64,000 bases of DNA from Minisyncoccia bacterium (GCA_050011835.1 JBEKII010000004.1:8386-72385); one strand, 5' to 3'; shown: positions 4,383-63,801, counted from the first letter of the stretch. Made by a program: numbers and translations. Notes: a model not told the origin generated them from the sequence alone.

Positions 4383-5472
4383 ACGGTTGAGTATAATTGT
4401 AAAGTGCGAGACCGATCGCCGTTGCGTATGCGAGCGATTCGTTGTAGTCAAGCGATGGAATCCACACATCGCGCGAAGACAGATTAGTGAAGACATCGCC
4501 AACCTCAACGGGGATTTTTAATGTTCCTTCCAAATATTCGGGGAGCCCGCGCACTGAAGCGTTGCCGCCGGCGAGAATGGCATACGATACCGGTTCATGC
4601 CCTCCACTTCGTGCCACTTTCCCTTGCCAATAGTCAAGCCGGCGTGAGATCTCATCGCGGATCGCAGAAGCCGTTGAAAGCATCGCCGCGAGGTAATCCT
4701 CGTTCCCGGGTACGGGAACAATTCCGCGCTCGGACTTCACTCTACGCGCCTCGGTCTCCGTAACGCCAAAGTACTTCTGCACGGCGAGCGTCAGCGCGTG
4801 ACCGCCGATACCGATTGTCGTAGCGAAACGCGGTATGCGCCCCGCGACAATGGATATTTTCGTCGTCGTCTTGCCAATATCAATGATGAGCACCGTGGAC
4901 GTATCCCCACGGGGAAGAAGCGCACGCGCTGTCGCGAATGTCTCTCCCTCGAGCACACGCACCGGGAGAGGTACCTGGTCAAATGCCGAGAGCACGTCGT
5001 CAACGACACGGCGCGCGAAACCGACACCCGCGATAAGAACATTGCCTTGTTCTCCCCTCCCCACTTCAATGATATCGAAATCTGTTTCAGATGGCGGCAA
5101 CGGTATCAGTTCGTCAAGATGCTGTTCAACCATGACGCGCCATTCGGCGACATTGGTGCCGGAAGCCGTGGTTTCAAAGAGAAACGACTTCGGTTCCGGC
5201 AGCGCGGCATTGACAACAGAAATATTAGCTGCCTTCGCGGCGGCGGAAAGCGCCTGGACGACGGCAGTTTTGTCAACTATCTCACCGTTAGTAAATGCGC
5301 CTGCTGATAACCATGTTTCCGCATAACTCGCGAGCGTGAGCCCTCGAGAATCTTCGGCGAGACGTACTGCCTTGACGCCGCTTGTAGAGAGGTCAATTCC
5401 GGAAAGCGGGAGCGTAAGATACCGTGGCGGTGCAAATAAAGTATGTAGGCGCTCACCAGAAGCGGAAGACAT
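4375..5472 (-). CDS. pilM: Type IV pilus assembly ATPase-like protein PilM (actin/HSP70 fold)
   Basis: 365 aa; N-terminal LSGIDLSTSGVKAVRL and IIDIGKTTTKISIV motifs typical of PilM/FtsA-like proteins. Confidence 0.75.
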   Translation of the reverse strand: MSSASGERLHTLFAPPRYLTLPLSGIDLSTSGVKAVRLAEDSRGLTLASYAETWLSAGAFTNGEIVDKTAVVQALSAAAKAANISVVNAALPEPKSFLFETTASGTNVAEWRVMVEQHLDELIPLPPSETDFDIIEVGRGEQGNVLIAGVGFARRVVDDVLSAFDQVPLPVRVLEGETFATARALLPRGDTSTVLIIDIGKTTTKISIVAGRIPRFATTIGIGGHALTLAVQKYFGVTETEARRVKSERGIVPVPGNEDYLAAMLSTASAIRDEISRRLDYWQGKVARSGGHEPVSYAILAGGNASVRGLPEYLEGTLKIPVEVGDVFTNLSSRDVWIPSLDYNESLAYATAIGLALYNYTQPYA

Positions 5473-27846: not shown

Positions 27847-28800
27847 ATGGGTGATATGCATGACGCGTGGTTTTTTATAGGTATATTCGTTTTCATATTC
27901 ATTATTTGGATCGCGGTTGGCGGTCCGACGCATCCGCTCGCATTTACCGGTCTGGCGCTCTCGCAACCGTCTCCTCTCGGCAACGGCACTTATCTGCAGC
28001 TTCCGAAAGCGCCCTTTAGTATTGGCGGCGCAACGGTCTCCCTTCCCGGGTCATCCAACGGAAATTCTTCTGGAAATTCAGCGTCGGCACCCTCACTCGG
28101 AAACGGGAATTTTTTTGGTTCCCCCTCGATATATCGCGGCATCGTTTCTTTAGACCACTACGTCTCCGGTGCCGGCTCGTCAAATCTAGAGAACGAATAT
28201 ATTGAATTGTCAGTCGCACAAAACGCTGGCGTGCCGGTTGATCTCTCCGGGTGGACGCTCTCAAGCGACGCAACGGGCAATGCCGCAATCATTCCCAAAG
28301 GTACTGAAATCCCAACGTCGGGCATCGTGAATGCCGCGCAGGATATCGTGCTCACTCCAGGAGAGCGGGCGATTATCATTTCCGGGCAATCGCCTATCGG
28401 CGCCTCTTTCCGCGAAAATAAATGCATCGGCTATTTTGGTAATTTCCAGACATTCTCCCCGCCTCTGCCACAGAACTGCCCTGAGCCATCCGATGAACTT
28501 TCTTCATTTTATGGTGCCGGCTACATCCGCGATGATGCTTGTATTGAATATGTAAAGACGCTGTCGCGCTGCCAGATCGCGCTCACGCCGCCGATCGGCG
28601 CTTCAAGCGCATGTCAGGGTTTCTTGGAGAAATATATGAATTACAACGGTTGCGTTACCGCGCACCAGAACGATGCCGATTTTGAGGGCGACACCTGGCG
28701 AATTTATCTTGGCCGTTCGGATTCAATGTGGCGTACCAGAAATGAATTGGTAAAGCTTCTGGATGCGAAGGGCGATACGGTGGACGCGTTCAGCTACTAG
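27847..28800 (+). CDS. Membrane-anchored secreted protein with lamin-tail-domain (LTD)-like region
   Basis: N-terminal TM, then YIELSVAQNAGVPVDLSGWTLSSDATGNAAIIPKGTEIPTSG...LTPGERAIIISGQSP, typical LTD pattern. Confidence 0.5.
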   Translation: MGDMHDAWFFIGIFVFIFIIWIAVGGPTHPLAFTGLALSQPSPLGNGTYLQLPKAPFSIGGATVSLPGSSNGNSSGNSASAPSLGNGNFFGSPSIYRGIVSLDHYVSGAGSSNLENEYIELSVAQNAGVPVDLSGWTLSSDATGNAAIIPKGTEIPTSGIVNAAQDIVLTPGERAIIISGQSPIGASFRENKCIGYFGNFQTFSPPLPQNCPEPSDELSSFYGAGYIRDDACIEYVKTLSRCQIALTPPIGASSACQGFLEKYMNYNGCVTAHQNDADFEGDTWRIYLGRSDSMWRTRNELVKLLDAKGDTVDAFSY

Positions 28801-33656: not shown

Positions 33657-35327
33657 ATGGATTTACCATTTGATATCGGACAAGAAACAAGAAAGCTCAC
33701 CGAAGTGCGCGAGCGAGAAGAGGAGGATGTCGCGCGCATTCTCTCCGAAAAGTACGGCATGACATACGTTGACCTTTCATTAAAGGAAATAAACAGCGAT
33801 GCCCTCCGCACGATTCCTGAAGACGAGGCGCGCCTCGCTGAAGTGGCGGCCTTCGCGCGCGTCGCCGAGGTGCTCTCGCTCGCCGTCCACAATCCGAACA
33901 ACCCCGCATTCATTAAACTTCGCGCCGAGCTCGTCGGGCGCGGATTCTCACTGCAAGAATTCCTCGTTTCGCAGAAGAGCTTGGATCGAGCGTTCGCTCG
34001 TTATGCTGACCTTACATTCTCTACCGAATCAAAAGCGGGCGGTTTCATTATTAACAAAGAAGTGCTCGCAAGACTCATAAAGGAAAACGGAACGCGGAGC
34101 GCTCTGAAGCAAGAACTTGACGCCACCACGACCCTGAAATCGCTTGACCGCGTCTCGCGCATTTTAGAAGCCGTTCTCGCGGGCGCTTTCGCGCTTCGCT
34201 CCTCCGATATTCATTTTGAACCAGAGGAAGAAAGAACTCGTTTGCGATTGCGCATTGATGGCATTCTGTTTGACACGTATTTTTTTGATCCGGCGACCTA
34301 TCATCAGCTCAACTCGCGCATCAAACTGCTCTCGGGCGTGAAGCTCAACGTTACCAATCGGGCGCAAGACGGACGTTTCAGTGTCTTGCACGAGAATAAC
34401 TCGGTAGAAATGCGCGTTTCCTTCATCCCCGGCAATTATGGAGAAGCCATCGTCATGCGTATTCTTAATCCCGAAGCGACCAAGGTCTCTTATAAGGAGC
34501 TCGGTATCCATCCGAAACTCCTCGCGCGTCTCGAGAGAGAAATCCGCCGTCCGAACGGCATGCTGCTCACGACCGGCCCCACCGGGAGCGGAAAGACGAC
34601 CACGCTTTACTCATTTCTCCGCGAGATTCACACGCCGGAAATAAAAATCATCACGATTGAAGACCCGGTTGAATACCATCTTGACGGTATTGTGCAAACG
34701 CAAGTCGCAGGAACGAAATACACCTTCGCCGAAGGGCTCAAGTCAATTGTCCGCCAGGACCCGGATATCATTATGGTCGGCGAAATCCGCGATAGTGAGA
34801 CCGCCGACATCGCCATCCAAGCGGCGCTCACGGGCCATTTCGTTTTCTCCACCCTCCACACCAATGACGCCGCTGGCACCTTCCCGCGCCTTACGGACCT
34901 CGGCGCGGACCCGAAATCCTTCGGTTCGGCAATTACTGTTTCCATGGCGCAACGTCTCTTGCGCCGACTTGACCCGGATAAAAAGAAAGAACGCTCGCTT
35001 ACCGACGACGAGAAAAAAATGATTGCAAAAGTATTTGAACCACTCGCCGACAAATCACTCGTTCCGGAAAAAATAGAAAAGGTTTGGGACCCGGCTCCCG
35101 CGAACGAAGACGAGACCGGCTTCAGGGGCCGCATCGGCCTGTACGAGGCAATTTTCATGGATGATGCGCTTGCAAATTTCCTTCGCGATAATCCGCCAGA
35201 AAACGAAATCGCGAAATTTACCTCAAAACAGGGCTACCTCACAATGGCGCAGGACGGCATCGTCAAAGCTCTTGCTGGTATCACGTCCCTTTCCGAAGTC
35301 GCCAATACCGTTGACCTTCCTAGGTGA
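33657..35327 (+). CDS. pilB: Type IV pilus assembly / type II secretion ATPase PilB (GspE family)
   Basis: Walker A TGPTGSGKTTTLYS, GEIRD and His-box THTNDAAG; N1/N2 domains. Confidence 0.9.
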   Translation: MDLPFDIGQETRKLTEVREREEEDVARILSEKYGMTYVDLSLKEINSDALRTIPEDEARLAEVAAFARVAEVLSLAVHNPNNPAFIKLRAELVGRGFSLQEFLVSQKSLDRAFARYADLTFSTESKAGGFIINKEVLARLIKENGTRSALKQELDATTTLKSLDRVSRILEAVLAGAFALRSSDIHFEPEEERTRLRLRIDGILFDTYFFDPATYHQLNSRIKLLSGVKLNVTNRAQDGRFSVLHENNSVEMRVSFIPGNYGEAIVMRILNPEATKVSYKELGIHPKLLARLEREIRRPNGMLLTTGPTGSGKTTTLYSFLREIHTPEIKIITIEDPVEYHLDGIVQTQVAGTKYTFAEGLKSIVRQDPDIIMVGEIRDSETADIAIQAALTGHFVFSTLHTNDAAGTFPRLTDLGADPKSFGSAITVSMAQRLLRRLDPDKKKERSLTDDEKKMIAKVFEPLADKSLVPEKIEKVWDPAPANEDETGFRGRIGLYEAIFMDDALANFLRDNPPENEIAKFTSKQGYLTMAQDGIVKALAGITSLSEVANTVDLPR

Positions 35328-35333
35328 AGAAAA

Positions 35334-36878
35334 ATGGAAAAAATTCCAAACAAAGAACAGGATCCGAAACAACGAACGCCGGAGGAAAAAGATATTCTTC
35401 GCGCACGTCTAAATTCAATAGTGAGCCAGAGCATCACGACAGCAAATATTGATACGTTCGCCGATTCGGCCCTCAATGAGCTTATTTTGTTTACCGGGGA
35501 AATTGTTGAGCACTATAAAACCGAACATCCGAAAGATATAGGTTCCGGGAAAGAACTCGAGGACCGTGCTTTCTCCACTTACGGTCTTGATGATTTAAAT
35601 TTGTACCTCGTACGTGTTCAGGAAAAGTCTGACCAGATTCATCAGCTTGATAAAGCATTGCAGGATATGAGTAATATCCCTGAGGTAATTACTCCTCCTG
35701 ATAAAAATAGTTCTTTTGTTAAAAGTAGTAACAGTAGCAATCCCTTTGAAGAAAAAGTGCTGATATCAAGACTGAAACTACTTTTGTATATTTTAGGTAA
35801 CGATTTCAATCTAAAACTTGAGGATGTTCAGCTTACCCGGGGAATTGTAACTGACACTATGGTGCGTCGAGAAAGTTATGTGACAGCAGAAATTCCCGCA
35901 CTACGTCGTGTTGTTCAAATCTGCGATGAAGAAGGAAACGCCAGTTACGTGTTTGATGGTGAAATTATGGCGCAAGAAGGAATCAGTGTCGCTGACTTGA
36001 ATCGTTCCGAGAAGCGAGAAAAAAATGAGCTTATAGATAAGTTCAGAGGGATTGGCACTCGCCTGATTCAACAAGCACATTGGCGCGACGTGATGGCAGA
36101 ATTTCTCTCCTCCCCTCTAGAGAAACCCGAGGAGGAAACGGTTGATCCGACATCAAAGGACCTGCCACAAGTTATAACTTCTGAATTCGATCCTTGGCGT
36201 GGTTTTCTTGAGGCAGATGGTATGCGCTGGGGGACAAAAAATGCAATTATTGCGTATCTTCACACAAATCATGAAACGATAGGTTCTTTTATTAAAAAGC
36301 ATCCGGAAATCCCTTCAAAAGAAGTGCGGGACTTGACAGGGAAAAAAAGAGAATCCTATCCAATAGAACAGATTGAGCCGAAATTTAAAGAACTTTTTTC
36401 CCTTTCTAAAGTCGCAACAAGCGGCGAGTGGAAAGGATTCTACGAAAGCGAGGACAAACATTGGGGAACAGCACACACAATCGCTATGCGATTAGGTTTA
36501 ACTAAAGGTACCATAGAGCCTCTTGTCAGAAAACATCCTGAAATTCAATCTAAAAGGGTGCGCGATTTAACAAACAAGGAAGCAAAAGCTTATTCTCTAG
36601 AACAAATCAAATCCAATGTTGATGAGTTTCTTTCTCTCCCTAAAGTCGCAACAAGCGGCGAGTGGAAAGGATTCTACGAAAGCGAAGGTGAGCACTGGGG
36701 ACCAATTAATACGATAGAACACTTCTTGGGGGTACTCAGGGGTAATATTTATTACCAAATTAAAAGACATCCTGAAATTCCATCAAAGAAACTGAGGGAT
36801 CTGACGGGAAAGGAAATATCAAATGCTTATTCTCTGGAACAAATTAAAAATATATTCAAAATAAAATCCCGTCCGTAA
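35334..36878 (+). CDS. Tandem-repeat protein (three ~55-aa repeats: HPEIPSK.VRDLT...SLEQI...ATSGEWKGFYESE..HWG), function unknown
   Basis: 514-aa ORF directly after pilB; internal nucleotide-identical ~47-nt repeats at ~36406 and ~36640. Confidence 0.5.
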   Translation: MEKIPNKEQDPKQRTPEEKDILRARLNSIVSQSITTANIDTFADSALNELILFTGEIVEHYKTEHPKDIGSGKELEDRAFSTYGLDDLNLYLVRVQEKSDQIHQLDKALQDMSNIPEVITPPDKNSSFVKSSNSSNPFEEKVLISRLKLLLYILGNDFNLKLEDVQLTRGIVTDTMVRRESYVTAEIPALRRVVQICDEEGNASYVFDGEIMAQEGISVADLNRSEKREKNELIDKFRGIGTRLIQQAHWRDVMAEFLSSPLEKPEEETVDPTSKDLPQVITSEFDPWRGFLEADGMRWGTKNAIIAYLHTNHETIGSFIKKHPEIPSKEVRDLTGKKRESYPIEQIEPKFKELFSLSKVATSGEWKGFYESEDKHWGTAHTIAMRLGLTKGTIEPLVRKHPEIQSKRVRDLTNKEAKAYSLEQIKSNVDEFLSLPKVATSGEWKGFYESEGEHWGPINTIEHFLGVLRGNIYYQIKRHPEIPSKKLRDLTGKEISNAYSLEQIKNIFKIKSRP

Positions 36879-41777: not shown

Positions 41778-42878
41778 CTATTGGTTCATCGGAGAAACAA
41801 GATATAAAAGTGAGGTGTCACCGACACCTTTTACGATGAGCGGACGGCCAATGCCGGCGGCGGTGAGTGACAGGCTCTCTGCTGTCGAGAGCGCGAATAC
41901 TGCGGAAAGATACCGATAATTAAACGAGAGTTCGAGAGCGCTCCCGGATATGTGTGCAGAAAGCGTCTCTGACGACTCGCCGACATCGGCATTTCGTGCG
42001 AAAAAGGAAAGGTGGTTCTTTTTTGGGTCAAAGCTTATGTTTACTTTTTGGAAGGAGTCGGAAAATATGGTCGTTTGTTTTAGTGCGGTCTCAAAATCTT
42101 TTCGCAGCACAACCGCCTCAACAACCGACTCTTTCGGTATGATTTGGCGGTAATCGGGATACACCGCATTCGTAAGACGTGAAACGAGCATGCCGAGCGT
42201 ACTCACGAACGCGCACTGGTGTTCATCAAAAGACATAATGACATCGTCATCGGGAAGTGCTTGGGCGATATCAAGAGCGTTTTTCGCCGGAATAAGAAAC
42301 TTTCCTTGTGTCCCTTTGTGCGCGAGTGGAACTTTTTTCTCCGCAAGGCGAAACGAGTCGGTTGCAACAGCCGTTAATACGCCACCCTCGATAGAAAGGT
42401 AAATACTCGCCAATTCAGGACGTATGGTGGAGGATGACGCACATGATGCAATAGAGGTAAAAAGAGCGCGCAGAAGAACTCCGGGGATAACTATTCTGTT
42501 TTTGGGATTTTCGGGAAACGGAATTGAGGGGAAGTCCTCATAGGAGGTGGTTTTTATTGAACTTTTACTAGTGCCGTGCGCGAGGGAAACGATATTCCCT
42601 GTGTGCTCGAGGGTTATGTCCCCTTCGCCAGTGAGCGAGCTCGCTATTTGTTGCAGAAGGGTCGCTGGTATCGCAACAACCCCGTCGGTGTTTACTTTTC
42701 CTTTTAATTTTAAGTCAATGCCGGTCTCAAGGTTTGTTGCTCGCATTTTAATTCCCTCATCTCCGGCGATAATAAGAATTGAAGAAAGAGCGGGAAGCAC
42801 GATATTTTTCCGTTCAGCAAATCGCGCAACGATATACACCGCCTCGGAGAATAATTTTTTATCTATTGAAATATTCAT
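41778..42878 (-). CDS. dnaN: DNA polymerase III beta sliding clamp
   Basis: 366 aa, three-domain clamp pattern; position immediately after dnaA. Confidence 0.85.
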   Translation of the reverse strand: MNISIDKKLFSEAVYIVARFAERKNIVLPALSSILIIAGDEGIKMRATNLETGIDLKLKGKVNTDGVVAIPATLLQQIASSLTGEGDITLEHTGNIVSLAHGTSKSSIKTTSYEDFPSIPFPENPKNRIVIPGVLLRALFTSIASCASSSTIRPELASIYLSIEGGVLTAVATDSFRLAEKKVPLAHKGTQGKFLIPAKNALDIAQALPDDDVIMSFDEHQCAFVSTLGMLVSRLTNAVYPDYRQIIPKESVVEAVVLRKDFETALKQTTIFSDSFQKVNISFDPKKNHLSFFARNADVGESSETLSAHISGSALELSFNYRYLSAVFALSTAESLSLTAAGIGRPLIVKGVGDTSLLYLVSPMNQ

Positions 42879-44441: not shown

Positions 44442-44585
44442 ATGCCTAAACAAACCTACCAACCCAAAAGGAGCAAGCGCGCCAAAACACATGGATTTCT
44501 TTCGCGAATGAGAACAAGTTCCGGCCGCGCAGTCGTGCAAAAACGCCGCCGGAGCGGCCGAATGCGTCTCGCCGTCCAAGATTAA
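44442..44585 (+). CDS. rpmH: 50S ribosomal protein L34
   Basis: Hand translation [47 protein letters not shown]; not in the ORF track because it is under 60 aa. Confidence 0.8.
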
Positions 44586-44590
44586 TTTCC

Positions 44591-44890
44591 GTGTTTCCCC
44601 GTAAAAAACGATTTCCACGCGCGCTACTCCCGCTTGCTATTAAAACAGGACGGCGGCGCGCATCGGAGCATTTCACGGCAGTTTTTCCACCAAACAGCGC
44701 GGGTTATGCGATTATTGTTTCTAAAAAAGTCGCCCGTCTTTCTGTCACGAGGCACCGTATCAAACGTCGAGTATCTGCGGTCCTCAGAACGATCTCACTT
44801 CCTCCGGCGTTGCTGCTTTTTCCACAATCGTCCGTAAGTAGTGTAAGCTATCAAGATATAAAAAAAGAACTCACTAACCTTATTTCGTGA
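44591..44890 (+). CDS. rnpA: RNase P protein component
   Basis: Basic; VSKKVARLSVTRHRIKRRV motif; follows rpmH. Confidence 0.75.
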   Translation: MFPRKKRFPRALLPLAIKTGRRRASEHFTAVFPPNSAGYAIIVSKKVARLSVTRHRIKRRVSAVLRTISLPPALLLFPQSSVSSVSYQDIKKELTNLIS

Positions 44891-45633
44891 TTTCATCTTT
44901 CTTCCATATTGTTTTTTATAATCCGATCTATAACGCTCTTGTCGCGCTCATGGCGCTCGTACCCGGCTCTGATGTGGGTGTCGCCGTTATTTTGCTTACT
45001 ATCGGCATTCGTCTCATTCTCCTTCCCTTTTCGCTCTCGGCGGCGCGCACCCAGCGTGCCATGAAAATATTGGAGCCGAAGATTAAAGAACTGAAAGAAA
45101 AACATAAGGGCAACAGAGAAAAAGAAGCGACTGAAACCCTATCGCTCTACCGCGAGGCGCGTGTAAATCCATTTGCAAGTATTCTTACGGTTTTTATTCA
45201 AATCCCGGTTCTTCTCGCGTTGTATTGGGTCTTCCGTTATGAATCGTTTTCGGTCGTCGATACGATACGGCTCTATTCATTCACTCCCGTGCCCCATGTG
45301 GTCTCGCTCCAATTCCTCGGGCTTATTTCAGTCACCGGCAAGAGTATAGTTCTCGCGGTACTGGCGGGCTTTTCTCAATTTTTCCAAGCGCACATGGCAC
45401 TTTCTGGCATGGGTTCTCTGGATGATACCGCGACCACGAAAGGCGGCTTTCAGCAAATGATGGGCATGCAACTTAAATACGTCTTCCCGTTCCTTATCGC
45501 AATCATCTCCTACACAACATCGGGCGCCATTGCGCTCTACTTCATCACCACAAACCTTGCCGGAGTGTTGCAGGAGTGGTATGTGCGCCGCACCGCCCAA
45601 AAGGAAGCATTAGAGCGAGTAGCCCCAGAGTGA
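44887..45633 (+). CDS. yidC: Membrane protein insertase YidC (short form)
   Basis: Multi-TM, YidC/Oxa1 motifs (ILLPFSLSAARTQRAMKILEPKIKELKEK). Confidence 0.8.
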   Translation: MISSFFHIVFYNPIYNALVALMALVPGSDVGVAVILLTIGIRLILLPFSLSAARTQRAMKILEPKIKELKEKHKGNREKEATETLSLYREARVNPFASILTVFIQIPVLLALYWVFRYESFSVVDTIRLYSFTPVPHVVSLQFLGLISVTGKSIVLAVLAGFSQFFQAHMALSGMGSLDDTATTKGGFQQMMGMQLKYVFPFLIAIISYTTSGAIALYFITTNLAGVLQEWYVRRTAQKEALERVAPE

Positions 45634-46881
45634 GCCGTCATTTTTGTTAACAAAAACAAGTTCGGTGTTTGAGGGGTCAACCGCCAGCGCCTCAGCGTCG
45701 AGCGTGGCACTCGTTTCGTTCGGAAAATCAAGCACGAGTTGCGCGTAACGCCCGGAAACATCTATTTTCCAAATGCGGTCAGAAAATTGGACAGCTCCCT
45801 GATACCAATCGTCAGGGTACGCATAATCGTTTGACGGGTCCACAGGAATACCGCAATAGATGGTTGAATCATCCGTGGTCCACACGCATTTGTCCGCGAT
45901 GGTCGCAACAGGAAGAGGGATCGTATCGCCAGTCATTGTATTCACCAGCTCCATTTGCATTTCTGAGTTCAACGTATAACTCACTAGCGCCCATTTTCCT
46001 GATGGGCTCGCGAGAGCAGCGAGACCATTCAGTGGTCCTGTGATGCGGGAGAAATTTCCATTGCCGTTGACGAGAAACGCATCACCATCGAGTGTCACGG
46101 ATGGTTTGGTATACGCGAGGTACTGGGACTTCCCGGCGAAGGAAACGCGCAGTGCGGAAAGCGGTGTCGTGAATATTTGCGACACATGTGTACCGTCTGT
46201 GTGTTCTAGCGATGCCACGGAGCCATTTACGCCCGACGCGAGAACAAGCACGCCCGTTGAAGAAACCGAAATATCGGAGAGATTTTGCGGCAGGAAAAAT
46301 CCTCCCGTGCCGTTTCCGGGAAGCGCATATGTATTGATGGTGGAAAAATCGTCTCCCGAAAGGTAGCGTACAAAGGCGAACGACGCATTCGGAAGCCACG
46401 TGGCAGATTCAATGCCCGGAACAGTTTTATTGCTTGTTCGGGTGAGTGTTCCCGCGCGCACTTCATATGTGAAAACATTGCCGCTCTGCCGTTCAATATA
46501 ATTAACCCCGACATCTGGAGAGGAGCTGGCATTTGGAGCGGGGATATCGACGGCAGCTTCTCCCGGCACGACCGGCCCCATGCTTATCTTCACGAGCCGC
46601 GCGGTAATTACCGCCGCCGCGCCTGTTTGATTAGATGATGCGGCCGTTTGTCCAGCAGCATTCGACGTCCCCTGCTCCTCCACCGGCAAACTCGTGTTCC
46701 CTGTCGGAGCAATCGAGACGCTGGCCTTGTTGGCGAAAAAATAAAAATACGCGAACACCCCAATTCCTACCAGAACGACGACGATTGCGATAATGATAAG
46801 TGCGCGACGCATATTATTGGAATATAGTCCAGCTCGGATTACCGGAGCAGGTGTTATTAAGCCAGAAAGAGTTGTCACCAC
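45610..46881 (-). CDS. Membrane-anchored secreted protein (possible beta-propeller), function unknown
   Basis: N-terminal TM then 380 aa of beta-rich sequence; last gene of the T4SS-like cluster. Confidence 0.4.
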   Translation of the reverse strand: MVTTLSGLITPAPVIRAGLYSNNMRRALIIIAIVVVLVGIGVFAYFYFFANKASVSIAPTGNTSLPVEEQGTSNAAGQTAASSNQTGAAAVITARLVKISMGPVVPGEAAVDIPAPNASSSPDVGVNYIERQSGNVFTYEVRAGTLTRTSNKTVPGIESATWLPNASFAFVRYLSGDDFSTINTYALPGNGTGGFFLPQNLSDISVSSTGVLVLASGVNGSVASLEHTDGTHVSQIFTTPLSALRVSFAGKSQYLAYTKPSVTLDGDAFLVNGNGNFSRITGPLNGLAALASPSGKWALVSYTLNSEMQMELVNTMTGDTIPLPVATIADKCVWTTDDSTIYCGIPVDPSNDYAYPDDWYQGAVQFSDRIWKIDVSGRYAQLVLDFPNETSATLDAEALAVDPSNTELVFVNKNDGSLWGYSL

Positions 46882-47767
46882 ACACTAGAGTTTTCTGTTT
46901 ACATACTGCCGTAATGGGCGCTGGAGTAGTATTCGAACATGTAACAGTATCTGAAATCCAATTTACGCCGTTTATACAAGTTTTCCAACCAAGATTTATA
47001 CTTTTACAGATATTTGCGAATTGAATGGCGTCACTTCCGTTATTCGAATTGCTGGCAGTACTGGCCACAGGTTGCAGTCGGTTAATTGTGCTGTTTATAT
47101 TAAATGTACCTGCTGTATTTATAAATACGTAAGTCTTTTTTGTCCACTGGCAAGATACTATGTATGAATTGACCGTTCCGGACACCATAGTTAATGGATC
47201 AGTCGTTAATGTTGCCCCGCAACTCTGACCCCATGTTTTTGCTGCAGCAAGAGAAGGACAAGTGGCAAATTGAAGAATACCGCTCGTGCCCGTTACCGTA
47301 CATCCACTTGAAGTGTCAACAGTGGGTGTTTGAGTCCCTGTCCCAGTCGATGTCGTTGTCGATGTGAGATTAATCTTCGGAAGATCGAGCGAGAGATTCA
47401 AGATGCTCGGATTGATGATGGAGAAGACAAGCACCGGCGAGAGAACGAGTACGAGGCCGAAAATCGCTTGCCAGATTCTGTTTTTGCTACTCATTAATGT
47501 GCTGACATTGTCCTGATTAGTCGCTATCCGAATACCTTCATAGATAATCACAATAATAGCGAGTATCGCGGCGATGCCGATGAGATATTTGTACAAATTA
47601 TTGAAAAAACCGGCGAGTCCGGCCGAAGTCTCGGGAACATTTTGCGTTAAGCCGGGGATACCTGCGAGCGGGACGAAATTTTGAGTGGCGGAAGCGGCAA
47701 AAACATGCGGTGCGCATCCCGCGAGAAGGAATAGACAGAAAACTGAAATGAGAAGGATTTTTTTCAT
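46814..47767 (-). CDS. TrbC/VirB2-like T4SS pilin-domain protein with long Thr/Ser/Cys-rich C-terminal extension
   Basis: Signal peptide, then two hydrophobic helices separated by a short polar loop (LAGFFNNLYKYLIGIAAILAIIVIIYEG...IWQAIFGLVLVLSPVLVFSIINP), the VirB2/TrbC topology. Confidence 0.45.
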   Translation of the reverse strand: MKKILLISVFCLFLLAGCAPHVFAASATQNFVPLAGIPGLTQNVPETSAGLAGFFNNLYKYLIGIAAILAIIVIIYEGIRIATNQDNVSTLMSSKNRIWQAIFGLVLVLSPVLVFSIINPSILNLSLDLPKINLTSTTTSTGTGTQTPTVDTSSGCTVTGTSGILQFATCPSLAAAKTWGQSCGATLTTDPLTMVSGTVNSYIVSCQWTKKTYVFINTAGTFNINSTINRLQPVASTASNSNNGSDAIQFANICKSINLGWKTCINGVNWISDTVTCSNTTPAPITAVCKQKTLVCGDNSFWLNNTCSGNPSWTIFQ

Positions 47768-48753
47768 AAGCCGAATAAGCCGCCGCCGGATGTGGCGCCG
47801 AAGGAGAGCGAAAGTTCCTCAACTGCTCTCGTTGACTCACCCGCCGAGGCGACGAGTGAGAGTGAGGCGGTCCCCTGTCCGCCGCCGGTCGGTCGCAGAG
47901 TTATGGAATTGCCCGTCTGCGCCTCGTTTCCATTTAGAAACCATTGGAGCGATGGCGCCCCGCTCGTTGTCGGAAAAGAAAACGGCGCCGCATAGAGCGT
48001 ATCTTCTGCATTGCTGATGACATAATCGCCGGAGAGCGCATGGTCGTAGAGAATGCCGAGCAACGGGTCGTTCTCATAGATTCGCACCGAGGGGTCTTCA
48101 GCGGCAAGCGAGAGCGATGCGCCGCCGACCAAACTCCCGTCTTGGCTCATCACCGCGACAGAGACCGAGCGTGCGCGGTATTGGAGCGGTGAGGCGACGA
48201 TAATCGCTGTTTTCCCGATGCCGGAAGAATCGGCGATTTGCGTGTCATCAACGGTCCAAGAATAAGAGAGCGTGGCTGGGTCAAATGTTCTTCCGCTCGC
48301 ATCTTGTAAATTTGCTATTGCGACAACGCGCACATCTCCCTCAAGCGGCACCAAAGATTTCCCGGGATAAAGCGGCGGCGCAGAGGAAACCGGTTCAGCG
48401 ATGAGCGCGACATCTTGCGGCTGGATGGAGAGCGTTTGACTATAATTCGTTCCGGCCGAAGTCACCGTCACTTTTATGTTCGTCACACTTCCCGCCTTAC
48501 CTACCGTGACAGAAACCGGCTGCACGCTACCCTGATAAATTTCCTTGCCTGCGGCGGAGACGGTTATTGTGGCATTGGAGAGATCAAGCGTTGATGAAAC
48601 CGCCGAAAGTGTCGCTTGGCCATAGGGTGTTGGATATTGAGGGTCTACTGAGAGGGAAAACGCCGCCGTGCTGTTCATAGGCATTGCCTGCGCAGAGACC
48701 GCCAACGGGAGGAGGAAAACGGCGGTAAGAATGGCAAAGAAAGTAAAACGCAT
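47764..48753 (-). CDS. Secreted protein (signal peptide MRFTFFAILTAVFLLPLAVSA), Ig-like beta-rich
   Basis: Start trimmed from the ORF-track extension; cluster context. Confidence 0.4.
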   Translation of the reverse strand: MRFTFFAILTAVFLLPLAVSAQAMPMNSTAAFSLSVDPQYPTPYGQATLSAVSSTLDLSNATITVSAAGKEIYQGSVQPVSVTVGKAGSVTNIKVTVTSAGTNYSQTLSIQPQDVALIAEPVSSAPPLYPGKSLVPLEGDVRVVAIANLQDASGRTFDPATLSYSWTVDDTQIADSSGIGKTAIIVASPLQYRARSVSVAVMSQDGSLVGGASLSLAAEDPSVRIYENDPLLGILYDHALSGDYVISNAEDTLYAAPFSFPTTSGAPSLQWFLNGNEAQTGNSITLRPTGGGQGTASLSLVASAGESTRAVEELSLSFGATSGGGLFGL

Positions 48754-48760
48754 GTCTCTA

Positions 48761-49342
48761 TTATATCTCGGCTTGTACCAATTGGGCGGCGCGCGCCTGC
48801 ATAAGCTCTGCGGCTCGTTGTTTTTGTTCCCGCAACGGGTCATTATCCTGCTCCTTTTTCCATTTTTCGTATGCCGCCTTATCTTTTTTAATTTCCGGCG
48901 CATATATTCTCCATGTCATGAGGGAAATACTCGCACCGATACCTGCAAGCAACCAGAGGATGGAGAACGAATTTTCCTTGAATACACGCCCGTTTTTCGC
49001 GAAGATGATGAAAGTCACAATGAGCCAGCCGAGAAATCCGACTGCCATTGCCATCACGGTACCGAATGCGGCGATTACTGGAGCGGCGAAATAACCGACC
49101 GCGGTAGCACCGGCGCCGCATACCGCAGCCGCAGTCTTCGCTCCCAATAGTCCGACCGTCCACGTCTTTATTGTGCCGCTTACCGTCAGGGTGCAAATCA
49201 CTCCGCCCAACGCTGGCCCGAAAAACCAGAACGAGAGAAACATATACCGTAACGCGTCAGATATCCCGCTTGCGCAAAGCTCCGGCAGCGCTTTCCCCCA
49301 CGTCATCACCTTCGGCGGCTGGCTATTTTTTTTCTGCGGCAT
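48761..49342 (-). CDS. Polytopic membrane protein (4 TM), possible minimal VirB6-like channel component
   Basis: 193 aa with four hydrophobic helices; immediately downstream of the VirB4-like gene. Confidence 0.35.
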   Translation of the reverse strand: MPQKKNSQPPKVMTWGKALPELCASGISDALRYMFLSFWFFGPALGGVICTLTVSGTIKTWTVGLLGAKTAAAVCGAGATAVGYFAAPVIAAFGTVMAMAVGFLGWLIVTFIIFAKNGRVFKENSFSILWLLAGIGASISLMTWRIYAPEIKKDKAAYEKWKKEQDNDPLREQKQRAAELMQARAAQLVQAEI

Positions 49343-51146
49343 ATCGCGCCTTCTCCTCCTTTATCGCGAGGAGTTGCGAGGGGTCGGAGGTGATAATTTG
49401 GTCTTCGGTATAACTCGCGACAATTTTAATCGCGACGTGTTTCAGTCCTGCGAAGAAAAGCCCCTCGCCCACCCCCGCTTCAAGCAGGAGATATTTTTCT
49501 TCATCGGTGAGATTAAACGTCTGCTGCAGCACGTCAATCGTTGTCGGCGATTGCTTTAAGAGCAGTTGCAATGAGGAGTTGGTAAGAATTGGCCGCCCGT
49601 ATGGGCTCTTTAAGAAGTCCTCAACGTCTTGAGTGATGGTACAGACGCCCAGATAGTACTTGCGTCCGCGCTTGGCGACAGAATAGAGGAAAGAAGCGGT
49701 ATCCTCGCTCTTCATCATCCACCACGCCTCATCAATGACCAACAATCGTTTCTTCAGATCGTGGCGTATCGCATTCCAGATAAAATGCGTGATGATATAC
49801 ATTGCCACGGGCTTGAGTTCATCCTCCATATCGCGTACCGAAAAAACTTCAAATTGCTGCGTGAGGTCTATATTGGTCGGCTGATCGAGGAACCCCGCCC
49901 ATGAACCGCGGGTATATTTGGAGAGACGCTCAACCAAGGACTCGCTGCCTTCCATGCCGGAGAGTACCTGCTCAAAATCGGAAAGGAGCGGTGCCTCCGC
50001 GCCGGTAAAATCGGCATCGCCGGTTATGTCTTTGAGCGCGTAGGTTTCGCTGATGGCGCGATCAACAATCGCATCTTCCTCTGGAGAAAGATTGCTGAGC
50101 ATAATGCGAAAGAGTCCGACGAGCGCGATGATATTTGAGCGCAAGATGTCTCTCGGGTCCTCGTCTTCTTTAACCGGAGGAAGGTCAAACGGGTTGATAT
50201 GGTGCTCGGAGGAGAGCGAAATGTGGAACGAGCGTCCGCCAGTCGCTTCGGCAAGCTGATCGTATTCTCGCTCTGGGTCAATGATGATAATGTCCGTGCC
50301 GAACATGAGGGAACGCAGGACTTCAAGTTTCGTCGCATAGCTCTTGCCGGAACCGGATTTCGCGAAAATAACCGAATTGTAGTTTTCAAGCGAGAATCGA
50401 TCAAAGAGAATGAGCGAAGAATTATGCCGATTGATGCCGTAAAGAATTCCGCGGTCGCTCGTTAGGTCAAAGGAGACGAAGGGAAAGATTGAAGAAAGCG
50501 GTGAAGAGTTCAATTTTGAGTTTACTAAAAGCTCATCGGTGCCGAGCGGAAGACAGGAACGGAATCCTTGTTCCTGCTGGAAGAGCGCGGGCTTCGTATA
50601 CACAAGTTTTGCGTCAAGAATACCGCGAATGTCACCTTCTATTTTGTCGATGTCTTCTTTAGAATCTCCGTACAGCGCGAGATACAAGCCGACATCAAAA
50701 AGCTTTTCCTGCGCCTGCTGGAGATTGTTGCGCAAACTTTCAAGATCCTGATATGCGGTGTCGAGCAAGGGGTCGCGCACGAGTCCTTTCGCTTCGCGTT
50801 CGCTAATTTGACTCTGAACTTCGGCGACTTTTTTCTGAAAACCGCGCAACGCCTCTTCGGTTTTTATGGGATGGATGAATATGGAAGCGTCAAGCACTTT
50901 ATCGAGATTGATGACGGGCGCGAACCAGCCATCGGAGAGAAAACGCGGATACGATATCGTGTAGAAAGAACGGACGAATTTTTCCCCAAGCTCAATCTCG
51001 CGCGGACCGATCTTGAGCGCAGTTGGGGCAATAGTGTCAATGAGGTCGAGCGAACCCTGTTTATAAATATCTTTCGGTAAGACCGCCGTTATCACCGGCG
51101 GCTCTTCTTTTTTACGATTACGATTGAGTAAGTCGAGGAGTGCCAT
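49323..51146 (-). CDS. VirB4/TraE/CagE-family T4SS ATPase
   Basis: Walker A FAKSGSGKSY, Walker B LLVIDEAWWM; N-terminal domain IELGEKFVRSFYTISYPRFLSDGWFAPVINLD...IFIHP typical of Gram-positive-type VirB4; start trimmed to MALLDLL. Confidence 0.8.
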   Translation of the reverse strand: MALLDLLNRNRKKEEPPVITAVLPKDIYKQGSLDLIDTIAPTALKIGPREIELGEKFVRSFYTISYPRFLSDGWFAPVINLDKVLDASIFIHPIKTEEALRGFQKKVAEVQSQISEREAKGLVRDPLLDTAYQDLESLRNNLQQAQEKLFDVGLYLALYGDSKEDIDKIEGDIRGILDAKLVYTKPALFQQEQGFRSCLPLGTDELLVNSKLNSSPLSSIFPFVSFDLTSDRGILYGINRHNSSLILFDRFSLENYNSVIFAKSGSGKSYATKLEVLRSLMFGTDIIIIDPEREYDQLAEATGGRSFHISLSSEHHINPFDLPPVKEDEDPRDILRSNIIALVGLFRIMLSNLSPEEDAIVDRAISETYALKDITGDADFTGAEAPLLSDFEQVLSGMEGSESLVERLSKYTRGSWAGFLDQPTNIDLTQQFEVFSVRDMEDELKPVAMYIITHFIWNAIRHDLKKRLLVIDEAWWMMKSEDTASFLYSVAKRGRKYYLGVCTITQDVEDFLKSPYGRPILTNSSLQLLLKQSPTTIDVLQQTFNLTDEEKYLLLEAGVGEGLFFAGLKHVAIKIVASYTEDQIITSDPSQLLAIKEEKARYAAEKK

Positions 51147-51147
51147 A

Positions 51148-51831
51148 TTATTTGTCAAGACGAATGGGATTCTCAAGTTCGCCCGGATTGAAAGAACGAT
51201 ACAGGAGTTCAATGATTTCTTCGGTACCGAGCGGCACCACGCGCACGCCGGTACCGGACAAGCCGCCGATGACGAGCGAGAGGCGCTGTTCAAGCTGTGC
51301 GCGGTCTTCTTCAAATGATGTCTCTGTGGAAGCATTCTTTGCCGATGAACTCTCGTGTCGTAAGAAGCTCATTGCGTGGGCGGTAGAAATATGCGGGGAA
51401 TACGGCACGACAATATAGAACGATTTTGTCATGATATTCGCTTGTTCGGCGAAGGAACGAATGAACTCGATATATTCACGCAGCTGGATCCTCATAAGCT
51501 CGGTTTTCTGCTCCGGCGTTTTCTCCTCAAGGAGGGCAAGATAGGGACGTAAGTCCATCTTGCGCGAATTCACGACAATTTGGATTGAGAAGTCAAGCGT
51601 GTTGAGAAAATTTTGAAAGCCGAGTGTGATGGCGCGCTGTTCGTCGGCCGATTTGAGTCCGAAGTTGATGGACGAGCAGATAAGCACGCCGCGATAGCTG
51701 CCGTCTTTTAAAATGATGGCGCCGTTCCGTATCTCCTTGACGGGAACGAACTGTTGCGTTGCTCCTGCTGATCGTGTTGTTGCCATATTATTTTGGGTTT
51801 TGAACTTCGGGCTTCTGGCCTTTGATATCAA
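51148..51831 (-). CDS. T4SS-associated protein of unknown function (between the VirB3-like and VirB4 genes)
   Basis: 227-aa ORF, soluble; 1-nt spacing to the VirB4 start. Confidence 0.35.
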   Translation of the reverse strand: MISKARSPKFKTQNNMATTRSAGATQQFVPVKEIRNGAIILKDGSYRGVLICSSINFGLKSADEQRAITLGFQNFLNTLDFSIQIVVNSRKMDLRPYLALLEEKTPEQKTELMRIQLREYIEFIRSFAEQANIMTKSFYIVVPYSPHISTAHAMSFLRHESSSAKNASTETSFEEDRAQLEQRLSLVIGGLSGTGVRVVPLGTEEIIELLYRSFNPGELENPIRLDK

Positions 51832-52255
51832 GCGACCATGCGAGCTCCGAAAGTTTCCCGCGCGTCAGCCTCGGCGTGCCGCGCGGAATGCGGGAACTCG
51901 CCTCTGCGGCCGCCGCAGCGGCCGCCGCAGCGGTTTTCTCCTTGTTCGTCGGCTCCTCGTGCTTCCAGAGAAAGAATTTCGCGCCCGTGTAATAATTAAA
52001 TCCTGCTTCAAGCACATTAACAAACGGCTTACCGTTTATTTTATAAAACGCGAGCGCTGCCGCGAGTCCTGCCACCAACGCCGAAAGGACGAGAGCGATG
52101 GCAATTTGCAAATAGGAGAAGAAAATAACGCAGAGTCCGACTCCGCCGGCGATGTAGATAAATTGTTTCAAGGTCAAAGGCCCAACAATCTTATTCTCCA
52201 CCTCAATAAATTGCGGAACTTGATATTCCATTCTCTTTAGTATATCAGCACACAC
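51788..52255 (-). CDS. PrgI/VirB3-like small membrane protein
   Basis: MEYQVPQFIEVENKIVGPLTLKQFIYIAGGVGLCVIFF... two-TM topology and position upstream of VirB4; poly-Ala linker. Confidence 0.45.
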   Translation of the reverse strand: MCADILKRMEYQVPQFIEVENKIVGPLTLKQFIYIAGGVGLCVIFFSYLQIAIALVLSALVAGLAAALAFYKINGKPFVNVLEAGFNYYTGAKFFLWKHEEPTNKEKTAAAAAAAAAEASSRIPRGTPRLTRGKLSELAWSLDIKGQKPEVQNPK

Positions 52256-52267
52256 GCAATGAAAATT

Positions 52268-52777
52268 CTATCCTCCACTACCCCGGATGTCCTTAGATTG
52301 AATGGGGCTTTCGATGCCGGGTGACCATTTCGCGTTTATCGTTCCAAACTTTTTCTCATATTCCTCAACTTGGTGCGCCAAACTCTGCACGAGGCGTTTC
52401 ATATGCGGCGGCGTGAGCGCATAGGCGCTCGCAGTCTCGCCGGCGCTCATTACCAGGACGAAATTCTCCTGTGAATGACCTGCAATGACATTTTCACAAA
52501 ACTGTTTTGGGATTTTATTGAAGTCCATGACTCTAGTATAACAGGTGGCAGAAATGAAGAAGCCCCCAAGGAGAAAGACTCCTTGAGGACCACGCCGCAA
52601 ATGTGGCGCATGCAAAAGGTTCGAATCTAATTTTGATCGCCAGCACTTTCTGCAAAAAAAGTGCTTTTTCCCAACCCATACCTTCCGCTTATGATGCGGC
52701 CTGTATTTCTTCACGCTCCTCACAAAAATTTTCCTGCCGCAATTGCCGCAGTATCTCATGTTCTCCTCCTCCCCCAC
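52268..52777 (-). CDS. Hypothetical protein (N-terminal part of the ORF possibly spurious)
   Basis: 169-aa ORF; Cys-rich basic N-terminal segment then MDFNKIPKQ... region. Confidence 0.3.
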   Translation of the reverse strand: MGEEENMRYCGNCGRKIFVRSVKKYRPHHKRKVWVGKKHFFCRKCWRSKLDSNLLHAPHLRRGPQGVFLLGGFFISATCYTRVMDFNKIPKQFCENVIAGHSQENFVLVMSAGETASAYALTPPHMKRLVQSLAHQVEEYEKKFGTINAKWSPGIESPIQSKDIRGSGG

Positions 52778-61792: not shown

Positions 61793-63214
61793 CTATTTTT
61801 GTTGCCAGTCGACAAATTGCCATTGAGTTGACGTGAAGGGAGTGAAAGGGGGCGGATTTGTTGAATTTTGCCGGTCAAAAGCGTCAATGCGCGTTTGATA
61901 ACCGCCGTCGGAACTTCCACATCCGTTTACCCACCGGGTACCGGTACGCAGGTTTGAAATCGTTGAGCCAAGAATAGTAAGCGTGCCGCGCGGCTCGTAA
62001 GGTCCCGGACAACTGTAGAGGTTACGTCCAAACGCGCCCGATTGCGCAACGAATATTCCGTCAAGTGTCATATTCTGTGGCGAATCGGGAGCGATGAGAA
62101 TATCGTTCGCGCTGATGACCGTGAGACCGTCGCTTCCGTCGGTTGCGGCGTAGGTAATATTGTTATGCAGGACCACGCTCGGTGTCACACCCGTCGTCGT
62201 CACATTTGCAGCAACCACAGTTATCTTGCCAGGAACAACACCTTCAATCCACGTATTGTCCTCTACGAAAATAAGGCCGCATTGCGCTGGTATAGGGAGC
62301 GTCTCGTAAAATGATTCTGCGTTGATAAGTGTGTAGTCAGTCGAGCTGTCAGTGGTATTAATGGGTTGGATGGAAAGCCCGGTGACTGACGTTACTTTGT
62401 TTATCGTGACTGTGCCGTTGCTATTGAAAATGAGGTGATAGCCAAGATTCGGATTCGCATTGTGACCGGAACTCGTGCTGTAGCGCGGCAGGTAAATGCC
62501 GTTTGCCTGCGCGGTCGCTTTCAGTGCGGTGAAATTTGATGCGATACCGCTAAAGTCAACTTGCGGCGTCGGATATACCCAGAGATTTTGGTTTGTGCCT
62601 GTTCCGACAACGCCCGGCGCGGAACGCTGCTCGGGCGAACAGCCGAAATCACTTGTGCAATCCCAGGTTGACAGCGAACTTGAAACGGGCGCGTTAGCGG
62701 TACCATCCATGCGTATACCGCCATTATCGTGATACGGACCGTTGATGATGCGGTCGGAACCGGCCCACACGCTGCTATTTACGATGTAGGAATAGGCCGC
62801 TACCGACGGTTCTGCGAAACGCGCGACAATTTTTGAAGAGACGCCGGGAGCGTCGTTGGGCACGCCCGTGCTCGTAACGCTCATCGATTGCACCGTGCCG
62901 CAGGCGCCATTACTGACGATAGAAAGAGAATAGGTGCCTGCCGTGCCATACTCCGGGTCGGCATACGTGGTTACATAGGGGCCACTATGCCCGGTTCCAT
63001 CGGTCGTATTGTCTGGGAAGTGCGAGAGAAACCATCGATAATATTCAATTCCGGCTTCTGCGATGGCGAACGCTTCGGACTGCTCCCGTGTGAGTTCCTG
63101 CAGATGATTTTGGGCGATGACAAAACCGGAGAGCGCGAGAAGCACGGTAAAAAATACTCCGCCAAAGACGAGGACGAGAAGCATAATCGATCCCTGACGA
63201 TAAAGTTTATTCAT
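61793..63214 (-). CDS. Large pilus-associated secreted protein (possible minor pilin/tip protein) with N-terminal TM anchor
   Basis: N-terminal hydrophobic helix, then a 440-aa beta-rich Gly/Thr/Asn-rich domain; directly downstream of a type IV pilin gene with a 4-nt overlap. Confidence 0.4.
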   Translation of the reverse strand: MNKLYRQGSIMLLVLVFGGVFFTVLLALSGFVIAQNHLQELTREQSEAFAIAEAGIEYYRWFLSHFPDNTTDGTGHSGPYVTTYADPEYGTAGTYSLSIVSNGACGTVQSMSVTSTGVPNDAPGVSSKIVARFAEPSVAAYSYIVNSSVWAGSDRIINGPYHDNGGIRMDGTANAPVSSSLSTWDCTSDFGCSPEQRSAPGVVGTGTNQNLWVYPTPQVDFSGIASNFTALKATAQANGIYLPRYSTSSGHNANPNLGYHLIFNSNGTVTINKVTSVTGLSIQPINTTDSSTDYTLINAESFYETLPIPAQCGLIFVEDNTWIEGVVPGKITVVAANVTTTGVTPSVVLHNNITYAATDGSDGLTVISANDILIAPDSPQNMTLDGIFVAQSGAFGRNLYSCPGPYEPRGTLTILGSTISNLRTGTRWVNGCGSSDGGYQTRIDAFDRQNSTNPPPFTPFTSTQWQFVDWQQK

Positions 63215-63801
63215 AATTGATTCCGCAAGTTGCGCAACGTTGCCCCGCCCGAGAGCGTGAAAGCGACGGGTGCCCGGTTTACGTTTACGTCAACGACAAC
63301 CACAGTTTTGATTGAAGATATTTTTGAGATGTTTATCGGTGTGGAAAGCAGTGCCCCTGTATTGTCAAAATAGGAGAACATCGGCGTTGACGAGGCGTTT
63401 ATGACCGAGGTTGCGATGGTTGACGTTGCGATTGTGGCGCCGACATACGAAGGCGGATTGCCCGACGGTTCCGCAACGACGCGGTAGAGGGTTCCGTTTA
63501 TGAGGATATACGTTACACGCTCAATGACGAAATCGTTATTGACATTCGCATAGAAAGTAATTGACGATGTTGCGACGCTCGCGATTGGATACGATCCGTC
63601 ACTCCCATAGGATGCTTCGCGGAGGTATCGCATCGCATCTTCAACGCCTTGGCGCGCTTGTGCTACCGCGGTTGCCTGTTGGAGCGTGTAGGCGTTCGTT
63701 TTGTAGAAATAAGTCAGCAGTGAGCCGAGGGTAACAAAAATGAGCGCGGTTATCGCAACGACAACGATAGTTTCTATCAACGTGAAAGCATTCCTCGTCA
63801 T
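63211..63801 (-). CDS. Type IV pilin (prepilin-type N-terminal cleavage/methylation domain)
   Basis: MTRNAFTLIETIVVVAITALIFV class-III signal motif (FTLIE with Glu5). Confidence 0.7.
   Translation of the reverse strand: MTRNAFTLIETIVVVAITALIFVTLGSLLTYFYKTNAYTLQQATAVAQARQGVEDAMRYLREASYGSDGSYPIASVATSSITFYANVNNDFVIERVTYILINGTLYRVVAEPSGNPPSYVGATIATSTIATSVINASSTPMFSYFDNTGALLSTPINISKISSIKTVVVVDVNVNRAPVAFTLSGGATLRNLRNQL

Follow-up and report, generated by a model that had tools for sequence, protein, structure and literature searches.

Does a type IV secretion system (T4SS) that adjoins the replication-origin region of a bacterial chromosome transfer DNA as a conjugative element, or does it belong to the resident machinery of the cell? 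This question is raised by a 64,000-nucleotide stretch of a Minisyncoccia bacterium (GCA_050011835.1 JBEKII010000004.1:8386-72385; hereafter the window, with positions counted from its first letter), in which seven co-oriented, tightly packed open reading frames (ORFs) occupy the minus strand within 45610-52255, all of them where the initial annotation had placed them. The record of the source contig (JGI metagenome 3300037993, Ga0427919_0000472, 103 kb) carries identical gene calls. We found that the cluster, with a probability of about 70%, represents the chromosomal, non-conjugative T4SS operon of nearly all Patescibacteria (the Candidate Phyla Radiation, CPR), here in a Kaiserbacteria-like genome, derived from the conjugation machinery of monoderms (MPF_FATA type) and repurposed for an epibiotic lifestyle. 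A probable non-conjugative, host-interaction role had also been put forward in the initial annotation, in line with published accounts of Patescibacteria T4SSs (PMC12102498, PMC10633639, PMC12857230). The novelty which that annotation implied was not borne out: both the system and its near-origin position have already been published (PMC12102498, PMC10633639), and because the cluster matches the descriptions of Quinonero-Coronel et al. 2025 and Wang et al. 2023, the system must be regarded as known.

The assignment begins with the VirB4 ATPase, which scored 362.9 bits against a cut-off of 325 for the NCBIfam family conju_CD1110 (NF045971), over profile positions 183-733, and matched the Pfam families P-loop_TraG, AAA_10 and DUF87. 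It aligned to the solved C-terminal domain of VirB4 (PDB 4ag5) with an E value of 4e-44, with the Walker A (AKSGSGKS) and Walker B (LLVIDEAW) motifs in register. When the motifs were checked for degeneracy, both were intact, and the CD1110 cut-off was passed. The PrgI protein scored 36.9 bits against a Pfam cut-off of 27, whereas its match to TcpE was weak, and its gene was directly upstream of that of TrsD in 79 of the 81 loci compared below. The original proposal, in which a PrgI/VirB3-like protein precedes a VirB4 of Gram-positive type (here MPF_FATA/CD1110), is therefore supported by passed cut-offs for both families. A search with VirB4 returned at least 8000 proteins at E<=1e-30, and the best 120 were 88-94% identical and labelled Kaiserbacteria, Paceibacterota or Minisyncoccota. 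Quinonero-Coronel et al. 2025 (PMC12102498) reported VirB4 from 2,417 of 3,035 Patescibacteria genomes and placed it as a single monophyletic clade within MPF_FATA; sequence comparison strongly suggests that our VirB4 falls inside this clade. According to the same source, VirB3/PrgI and VirB2-like pilins occur near virB4, and relaxases are very few.

For comparison, we used 81 loci, comprising 80 loci from species-representative genomes (L002-L081) and the source contig. VirB4 identity across the 80 species-representative loci was 72-93%. The order PrgI, TrsD, VirB4, (small transmembrane protein), immunoglobulin-like (Ig) protein, pilin, propeller recurred in these 80 loci wherever the contig sufficed, with some rearrangements. 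Beyond the operon, every related locus of sufficient length carried yidC-rnpA on the opposite strand and then dnaA-dnaN. Similarly, in the window the 3' end of the operon converged on yidC, followed by rnpA, rpmH, dnaA and dnaN (Table 1), and the cumulative GC-skew minimum of the window was at about 45-47 kb. With these genes directly alongside and the skew minimum at this place, the cluster does adjoin the replication-origin region, as had been noted at the outset. This position rests on synteny and skew and not on a mapped oriC; DnaA boxes (TTATCCACA, at most one mismatch) were not enriched in the window (14 matches against 9.7 expected, not significant), and the origin itself was not located. 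A location close to dnaA, dnaN, rnpA and rpmH has been described for Paceibacteria and Microgenomatia, and was read by the authors as a gene-dosage effect (PMC12102498).

Inheritance of the cluster could be followed in the same loci. VirB4 identity correlated with that of DnaA (rho 0.81) and DnaN (rho 0.86) over 57 loci, and the GC content of the operon was equal to that of its flanks. Judging from median identities in the most distant locus group (Table 1), the VirB4 motor is more constrained than the replication initiator DnaA, and the extracytoplasmic parts evolve fast. For a machine that contacts a host, one would expect just such a pairing of a slow motor and rapidly changing surface parts. 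The operon is a vertically inherited core machine beside dnaA and not an integrative conjugative element (ICE).

Table 1. Genes of the T4SS operon and of the adjoining origin region: position in the window (operon genes with refined starts), number of comparison loci with the component, and median identity (%) in the most distant locus group.
Feature	Position	Strand	Size or basis	Loci	Median identity (%)
PrgI/VirB3-like protein with two transmembrane helices, operon gene 1	51788-52231	-	147 aa	79/81	45
TrsD-like protein, detached VirB4 N-terminal domain	51148-51786	-	212 aa	81/81	55
VirB4 ATPase, MPF_FATA / CD1110 type	49323-51146	-	607 aa	81/81	73
Small polytopic membrane protein, about 4 transmembrane helices, charged C-terminus	48761-49342	-	193 aa	46/81 (jackhmmer family)	
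Secreted protein, signal peptide and three Ig-like beta-sandwich domains	47764-48753	-	329 aa	79/81 (syntenic)	30
Pilin-like protein, whole gene	46814-47767	-	317 aa	72/81	
VirB2/TrbC-like pilin module, residues 1-124: signal peptide and two hydrophobic helices	47396-47767	-			
Pilin C-terminal tail, residues 125-317: Thr/Ser-rich linker and 10-conserved-cysteine domain	46814-47395	-			
Membrane-anchored beta-propeller protein, last operon gene	45610-46812	-	400 aa	68/81	27
yidC	44887-45633	+	Pfam/NCBIfam		40
rnpA	44591-44890	+	Pfam/NCBIfam		
rpmH	44443-44587	+	read directly from sequence		
dnaA	42991-44343	-	Pfam/NCBIfam		54
dnaN	41778-42878	-	Pfam/NCBIfam		37

These data bear directly on the possibility that the cluster is an ordinary ICE, or the remnant of one, which came to lie near dnaA by chance and transfers DNA. 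The VirB4, PrgI, TrsD and pilin families were all defined on conjugative elements, and a large serine recombinase and a reverse transcriptase do occur elsewhere in the window. However, the recombinase is 43 kb off, beside tRNA genes, in a separate variable insertion, and the reverse transcriptase is part of a diversity-generating retroelement (DGR). No integrase flanked the T4SS operon. Neither a relaxase nor a VirD4-type coupling protein was seen when the window ORFs of at least 140 aa were read by eye, when ten window ORFs that had no other assignment were scanned with Pfam, or in the 10 kb beyond the window's right end. This agrees with the initial annotation, in which both were stated to be absent from the window. 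Besides, position and gene order were the same in 80 species, there was no compositional break, and VirB4 was more conserved than DnaA, unlike the cargo of mobile elements. Because a relaxase and a coupling protein were missing from the ORFs inspected in the window and the adjoining 10 kb, the site was fixed in 80 species and divergence followed that of DnaA and DnaN, we rejected the ICE explanation, which we consider highly improbable.

The recombinase and the retroelement are described here as separate features of the window. The serine recombinase (Resolvase and Zn_ribbon_recom domains, 1223-2899) was the only recombinase in the window and abutted tRNA-Leu (2804-2886) and tRNA-Arg (2887-2959), its mechanically called ORF extending into the tRNA genes. 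In a comparison of contigs L082 and L083, the sister contig L083 had the same neighbor genes without the recombinase; since it is absent there and far from the operon, we treat it as a strain-variable insertion. The DGR was complete (10074-12839, minus strand) and included the reverse transcriptase (RVT_1, 10074-11327) and a 121-nt template repeat (11562-11682) that was 86% identical to the variable repeat (12053-12173), with all 17 mismatches at template adenines. The variable repeat encoded the C-terminal end of a 263-aa ORF (12048-12839) that had no Pfam match.

The gene between PrgI and VirB4 had been reported as a 227-aa gene of unassignable function and as a possible lineage-specific component, and all three statements needed revision. 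Refinement of the start gave a shorter protein (Table 1), and the search with its orthologues identified a TrsD homologue, as 42 of 42 matched VirB4 N-termini and 38 of 42 matched TrsD. TrsD, which is remotely homologous to the N-terminus of VirB4, is the most abundant T4SS component in Patescibacteria (PMC12102498) and not peculiar to one lineage. The protein from the window matched positions 1-163 of the CD1110 VirB4 profile, of whose 752 positions the VirB4 gene takes 183-733, and there were about 70 additional residues between profile positions 163 and 183. It also matched VirB4_plasma, the N-terminus of mycoplasma ICE VirB4 (positions 86-238, E 3e-10), and TrsD/TraD (E 7e-4). The precomputed Pfam label for this gene in the source contig was PF26593 TraC-like, and a PDB sequence search returned nothing meaningful. 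Since its scores stayed far under the thresholds curated for whole families (19 bits against 200), these matches should be taken as homology and not as equivalog membership. VirB4 is split here into TrsD, corresponding to its N-terminal domain, and an ATPase gene. A simple frameshift or sequencing frameshift as the origin of the split was rejected: each of the 81 loci encoded the TrsD-like protein (median 215 aa) apart from VirB4, the stop/start junction between the two was conserved, and the additional residues mentioned above lie between the two parts of the profile.

The seven genes are one translationally coupled operon. Adjacent genes were separated by 1 nt at three junctions and by 7 nt at another, and overlapped by 4 nt and 20 nt at the remaining two, the 20-nt overlap being that of the gene for the protein with four transmembrane (TM) helices, hereafter the 4-TM protein, with the 3' end of VirB4. 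The 13-mer AAATAATATGGCA (stop TAA, one base, ATG) was identical at 51144-51156 (TrsD/VirB4) and 51784-51796 (PrgI/TrsD), which suggests conserved translational coupling. Scans for promoters and terminators showed no excess over shuffled expectation and were left out of the evidence. A DUF3467 gene (86 aa, 52268-52528) was located 36 nt upstream of PrgI, with a terminator-like hairpin (52591-52561) just before it. It was considered as an eighth operon member and rejected as a core part, as it was adjacent in only 8 of the 81 loci.

The pilin-like protein had a modular structure. Its N-terminal module was below both relevant Pfam cut-offs in the window (T4SS_pilin, 23.7 against 26.6 bits; TrbC, 21.3 against 27.9 bits), and among the 72 syntenic orthologues, 62 matched T4SS_pilin (best E 3e-11) and 24 matched TrbC/VirB2. 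Conserved motifs of the module were FVPLAPIPGLT, FFNNLYKYLIG and LVLSPVLVFSIINPSIL, and only one such module was present in the window. A search of 1.84 billion proteins with the tail recovered only 41 representative clusters, and the match was C-terminal in full-length hits (310-450 aa). We sampled ten of these tail-bearing proteins, and all ten had an N-terminal T4SS_pilin match, which was above the Pfam cut-off in six. Nine tail cysteines were invariant across 30 sequences and the tenth was at least 90% conserved; the tail had no match in Pfam or PDB. When the pilins of the 80 loci were compared, the alignable part was limited to the N-terminal 30-55%, and the tails, of 13-347 aa, were unalignable. 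The initial description of the protein as a pilin of VirB2 topology whose long tail is rich in Cys is supported by the matches of the orthologues, with the addition that the tail diverges between loci. Two loci differed in arrangement: in one (L075:13293-15032), a single 580-aa ORF fused a Peptidase_S8 (subtilase) domain to a T4SS_pilin module, and in another (L053:13882-16143) there were two tandem pilin genes, the first with two pilin-module matches.

Three further products are less well characterized. The 4-TM protein and 37 relatives matched no Pfam or NCBIfam family, including VirB6, PrgH and TrbL, so an assignment to VirB6 was not possible; it is possible that the protein occupies the slot of a VirB6 analogue. 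Most loci without a member of its family had an unassigned ORF with 2-4 TM helices in this slot, and in about 12 loci the slot was empty and the pilin was placed after the propeller gene. The 329-aa Ig protein had 676 homologues at E<=1e-5 and the 400-aa propeller protein had 818; in each case the best 120 were unnamed or 'hypothetical' and essentially without Pfam domains. Most loci without the propeller protein stopped at a contig edge. The AlphaFold2 (AF2) model of the Ig protein (mean predicted local distance difference test, pLDDT, 73.4) showed three Ig-like sandwiches downstream of a signal peptide, and Foldseek comparison with PDB returned multi-Ig and fibronectin type III (FnIII) proteins (Hoc, CD22 and gp130). 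The model of the propeller protein (mean pLDDT 81.6) showed a TM helix at residues 2-26, a disordered tether at 26-69 and an all-beta propeller at 70-400, and its Foldseek matches were generic beta-propellers (oligogalacturonate lyase, WD40 proteins and TolB). Neither model resembled VirB6, VirB8, VirB9 or VirB10, and no VirB8-like (NTF2-fold) or VirB1-like (hydrolase) domain was found in the seven operon products. We also considered a link of the three-Ig protein to the newly described Pam pilus of CPR (bioRxiv 10.64898/2026.03.03.709456), which has Ig-like donor-strand-exchange pilins and PapD-like membrane chaperones encoded by an operon near ATP synthase genes. Such a link is not favored: only the general fold class is shared, and genomic context and operon differ.

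How these parts might work together can be proposed as follows. PrgI and TrsD would dock the VirB4 hexamer at the cytoplasmic membrane, and VirB4 would pull the Sec-inserted pilin from the membrane and polymerize it into a VirB2-type tube. In solved conjugative pili, the termini of the pilin face outward. By analogy, the disulfide-rich, variable tail may be located outside the filament and confer host specificity. The three-Ig protein and the propeller, with its flexible tether of 40 residues, may form a wall-spanning or adhesive part that replaces the unfound VirB6/8/9/10. The assembled machine would contact the host cell and move macromolecules. With regard to direction, uptake of host material is favored over effector export, and plasmid conjugation is unlikely.

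Import in a stricter sense, by a dedicated nucleic-acid import machine similar to crenarchaeal Ced that feeds a nucleotide-auxotrophic cell, was also considered. Such a machine would have the VirB4 motor in common with Ced, and the window shows neither the relaxase nor the coupling protein that export would require. Also, a cultivated relative was described to acquire host RNA and to form tubular structures that reach the host and are possibly T4SS pili (preprint bioRxiv 10.64898/2026.06.21.733656), and uptake from the host through the T4SS pilus has been offered as speculation in a 2025 FEMS review (PMC12857230). However, the Ced matches of VirB4 were weak and local (CedB, 32.5 bits against 700, over about 70 residues around the P-loop region; CedD, 23 bits against 600), and no protein of the cluster matched other Ced families, CedA-like partners not having been specifically searched. 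In addition, transformation of Southlakia epibionticum needs ComEC and type IV pili (T4P), and deletion of comEC abolished competence and left viability unaffected (PMC12857230), whereas transposon sequencing (Tn-seq) showed the T4SS genes SEML1_0006-0019, pilins included, to be essential for epibiotic growth (Wang et al. 2023, PMC10633639). This contrast between a dispensable comEC and an essential T4SS speaks against DNA import as the role that makes the system necessary, and not against RNA or other cargo. On the whole, a dedicated nucleic-acid importer appears possible but doubtful.

A further alternative is that the machine acts on the host without import, either as a protein/effector translocator or purely for assembly of an adhesion pilus. 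The T4SS of S. epibionticum is without coupling protein and relaxase (PMC10633639), and protein secretion is known from T4SSs that lack a coupling protein, such as Ptl and Brucella VirB (cited in PMC12102498). Wang et al. proposed protein export or an alternative role (PMC10633639), and the fast-evolving Ig, propeller and pilin-tail domains have an adhesin-like look. On the other hand, no candidate effector gene was conserved in the operon, and adhesion is already supplied by T4P (PMC12857230), genes for which are present in the window. We consider an exporter or adhesion machine of this kind unlikely, and retain the non-conjugative host-contact system, with uptake of host material, as the preferred explanation.

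The T4P genes lie around the operon (3301-5472, 33657-35327 and 61793-63801) and encode PilM, two PilN/O-like proteins, a PilB-type ATPase and two pseudopilin-like proteins; just past the window's right end (L084 5262-10004), there were another PilB/PilC pair and a CarboxypepD_reg protein. The gene of the PilB-like ATPase is immediately followed downstream by a 514-aa ORF (35334-36878) that had no Pfam match and in which a unit of about 70 aa occurred three times (...SGEWKGFYESE.KHWG...KHPEI.SK.VRDLT.K...). Elsewhere, beside a Mur ligase gene, a 317-aa membrane-anchored protein (27847-28800) had a match to the lamin-tail domain LTD at 33.7 bits against a cut-off of 34.3.

Several points weigh against the non-conjugative host-contact system as we have described it. 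No homologue of VirB6, VirB8 or VirB1 was recognized in the cluster. The pilin module with its globular tail of about 190 residues could be a simple membrane anchor, its polymerization being putative. The AF2 models were derived from shallow alignments (64-78% identity), and that of the Ig protein had only moderate confidence. Besides, the part of the genome inspected comprised the 64 kb of the window and the additional 10 kb, and the remainder may encode a coupling protein or relaxase; indeed, VirD4-like genes are distant from virB4 in most genomes (PMC12102498). Finally, functional experiments come from Saccharimonadia, whose cluster differs in having pilin arrays, VirB6 and VirB1-like enzymes, so both the function and the direction of transport in Paceibacteria are inferred.

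What this locus offers is not a new system but a clean Paceibacteria example with an inventory of seven genes found again in 80 related genomes at species level. Few machines other than the Patescibacteria T4SS have been demonstrated to be essential to the epibiotic life of this very large uncultivated radiation. The split VirB4, the two unannotated extracytoplasmic proteins that always travel with it, the pilin with a fast-evolving, disulfide-rich display domain and a VirB4 more tightly constrained than the replication initiator could guide structural and genetic work as soon as a host-epibiont pair with a Paceibacteria member becomes amenable to manipulation. It is possible but doubtful, at much lower confidence than the assignment of the system itself, that the envelope part in this Paceibacteria lineage has an architecture as yet undescribed by any structure, in which a VirB2 scaffold displays interchangeable host-specificity domains, the Ig and propeller proteins replace VirB6/8/9/10 and the motor is indispensable for feeding on the host. 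If so, the 10-cysteine domain, found only on such pilins, would be a host-specificity determinant on the pilus surface, and the slow evolution of VirB4 relative to DnaA would reflect the need for this feeding. In the available parts of PMC12102498 and PMC10633639, the two always-syntenic extracytoplasmic proteins were not found named as components; likewise, neither a modular, fast-evolving pilin tail nor a VirB4 slower than DnaA was found in the portions of published Patescibacteria T4SS accounts at hand.

Comparison with known systems places the cluster at different distances from each. Crenarchaeal Ced shares a VirB4-family motor, the lack of a relaxase and a proposed import direction, but its partner proteins are different and the similarity is only local, around the P-loop. 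The CTn2/CD1110 VirB4 of Clostridioides ICEs (NF045971) is the best-scoring curated family, and TrsD and VirB4 together tile its profile; however, it is one polypeptide on a mobile element, whereas here the protein is split and the chromosomal site is fixed. The T4SSs of pGO1, pSK41 and pIP501 (TrsC-TrsD-TrsE or TraC-TraD-TraE) have the same order of VirB3-like protein, TrsD and VirB4, with a separate VirB4 N-terminal domain. In contrast to our cluster, they are plasmid-borne and lack a pilin, and their parts include relaxase, coupling protein, VirB1, VirB6 and VirB8-like proteins; in our cluster, a VirB2-like pilin is present, and relaxase, coupling protein and VirB1/6/8 are absent or unrecognized. 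The T4SS of S. epibionticum ML1 has a 6-gene pilin array, while the only pilin of our cluster bears a long Cys-rich tail; no VirB6 or VirB1-like enzyme was recognizable in our cluster. Closest is the Patescibacteria-clade T4SS as a whole. Our cluster differs from it in two additional, always-syntenic proteins, one with three Ig domains and the other a TM-anchored propeller, and agrees with it in the clustering of VirB3/PrgI, TrsD, VirB4 and a putative VirB2-like pilin, in having no relaxase or coupling protein nearby, and in the chromosomal site by dnaA, dnaN, rnpA and rpmH, as described for Paceibacteria (PMC12102498).

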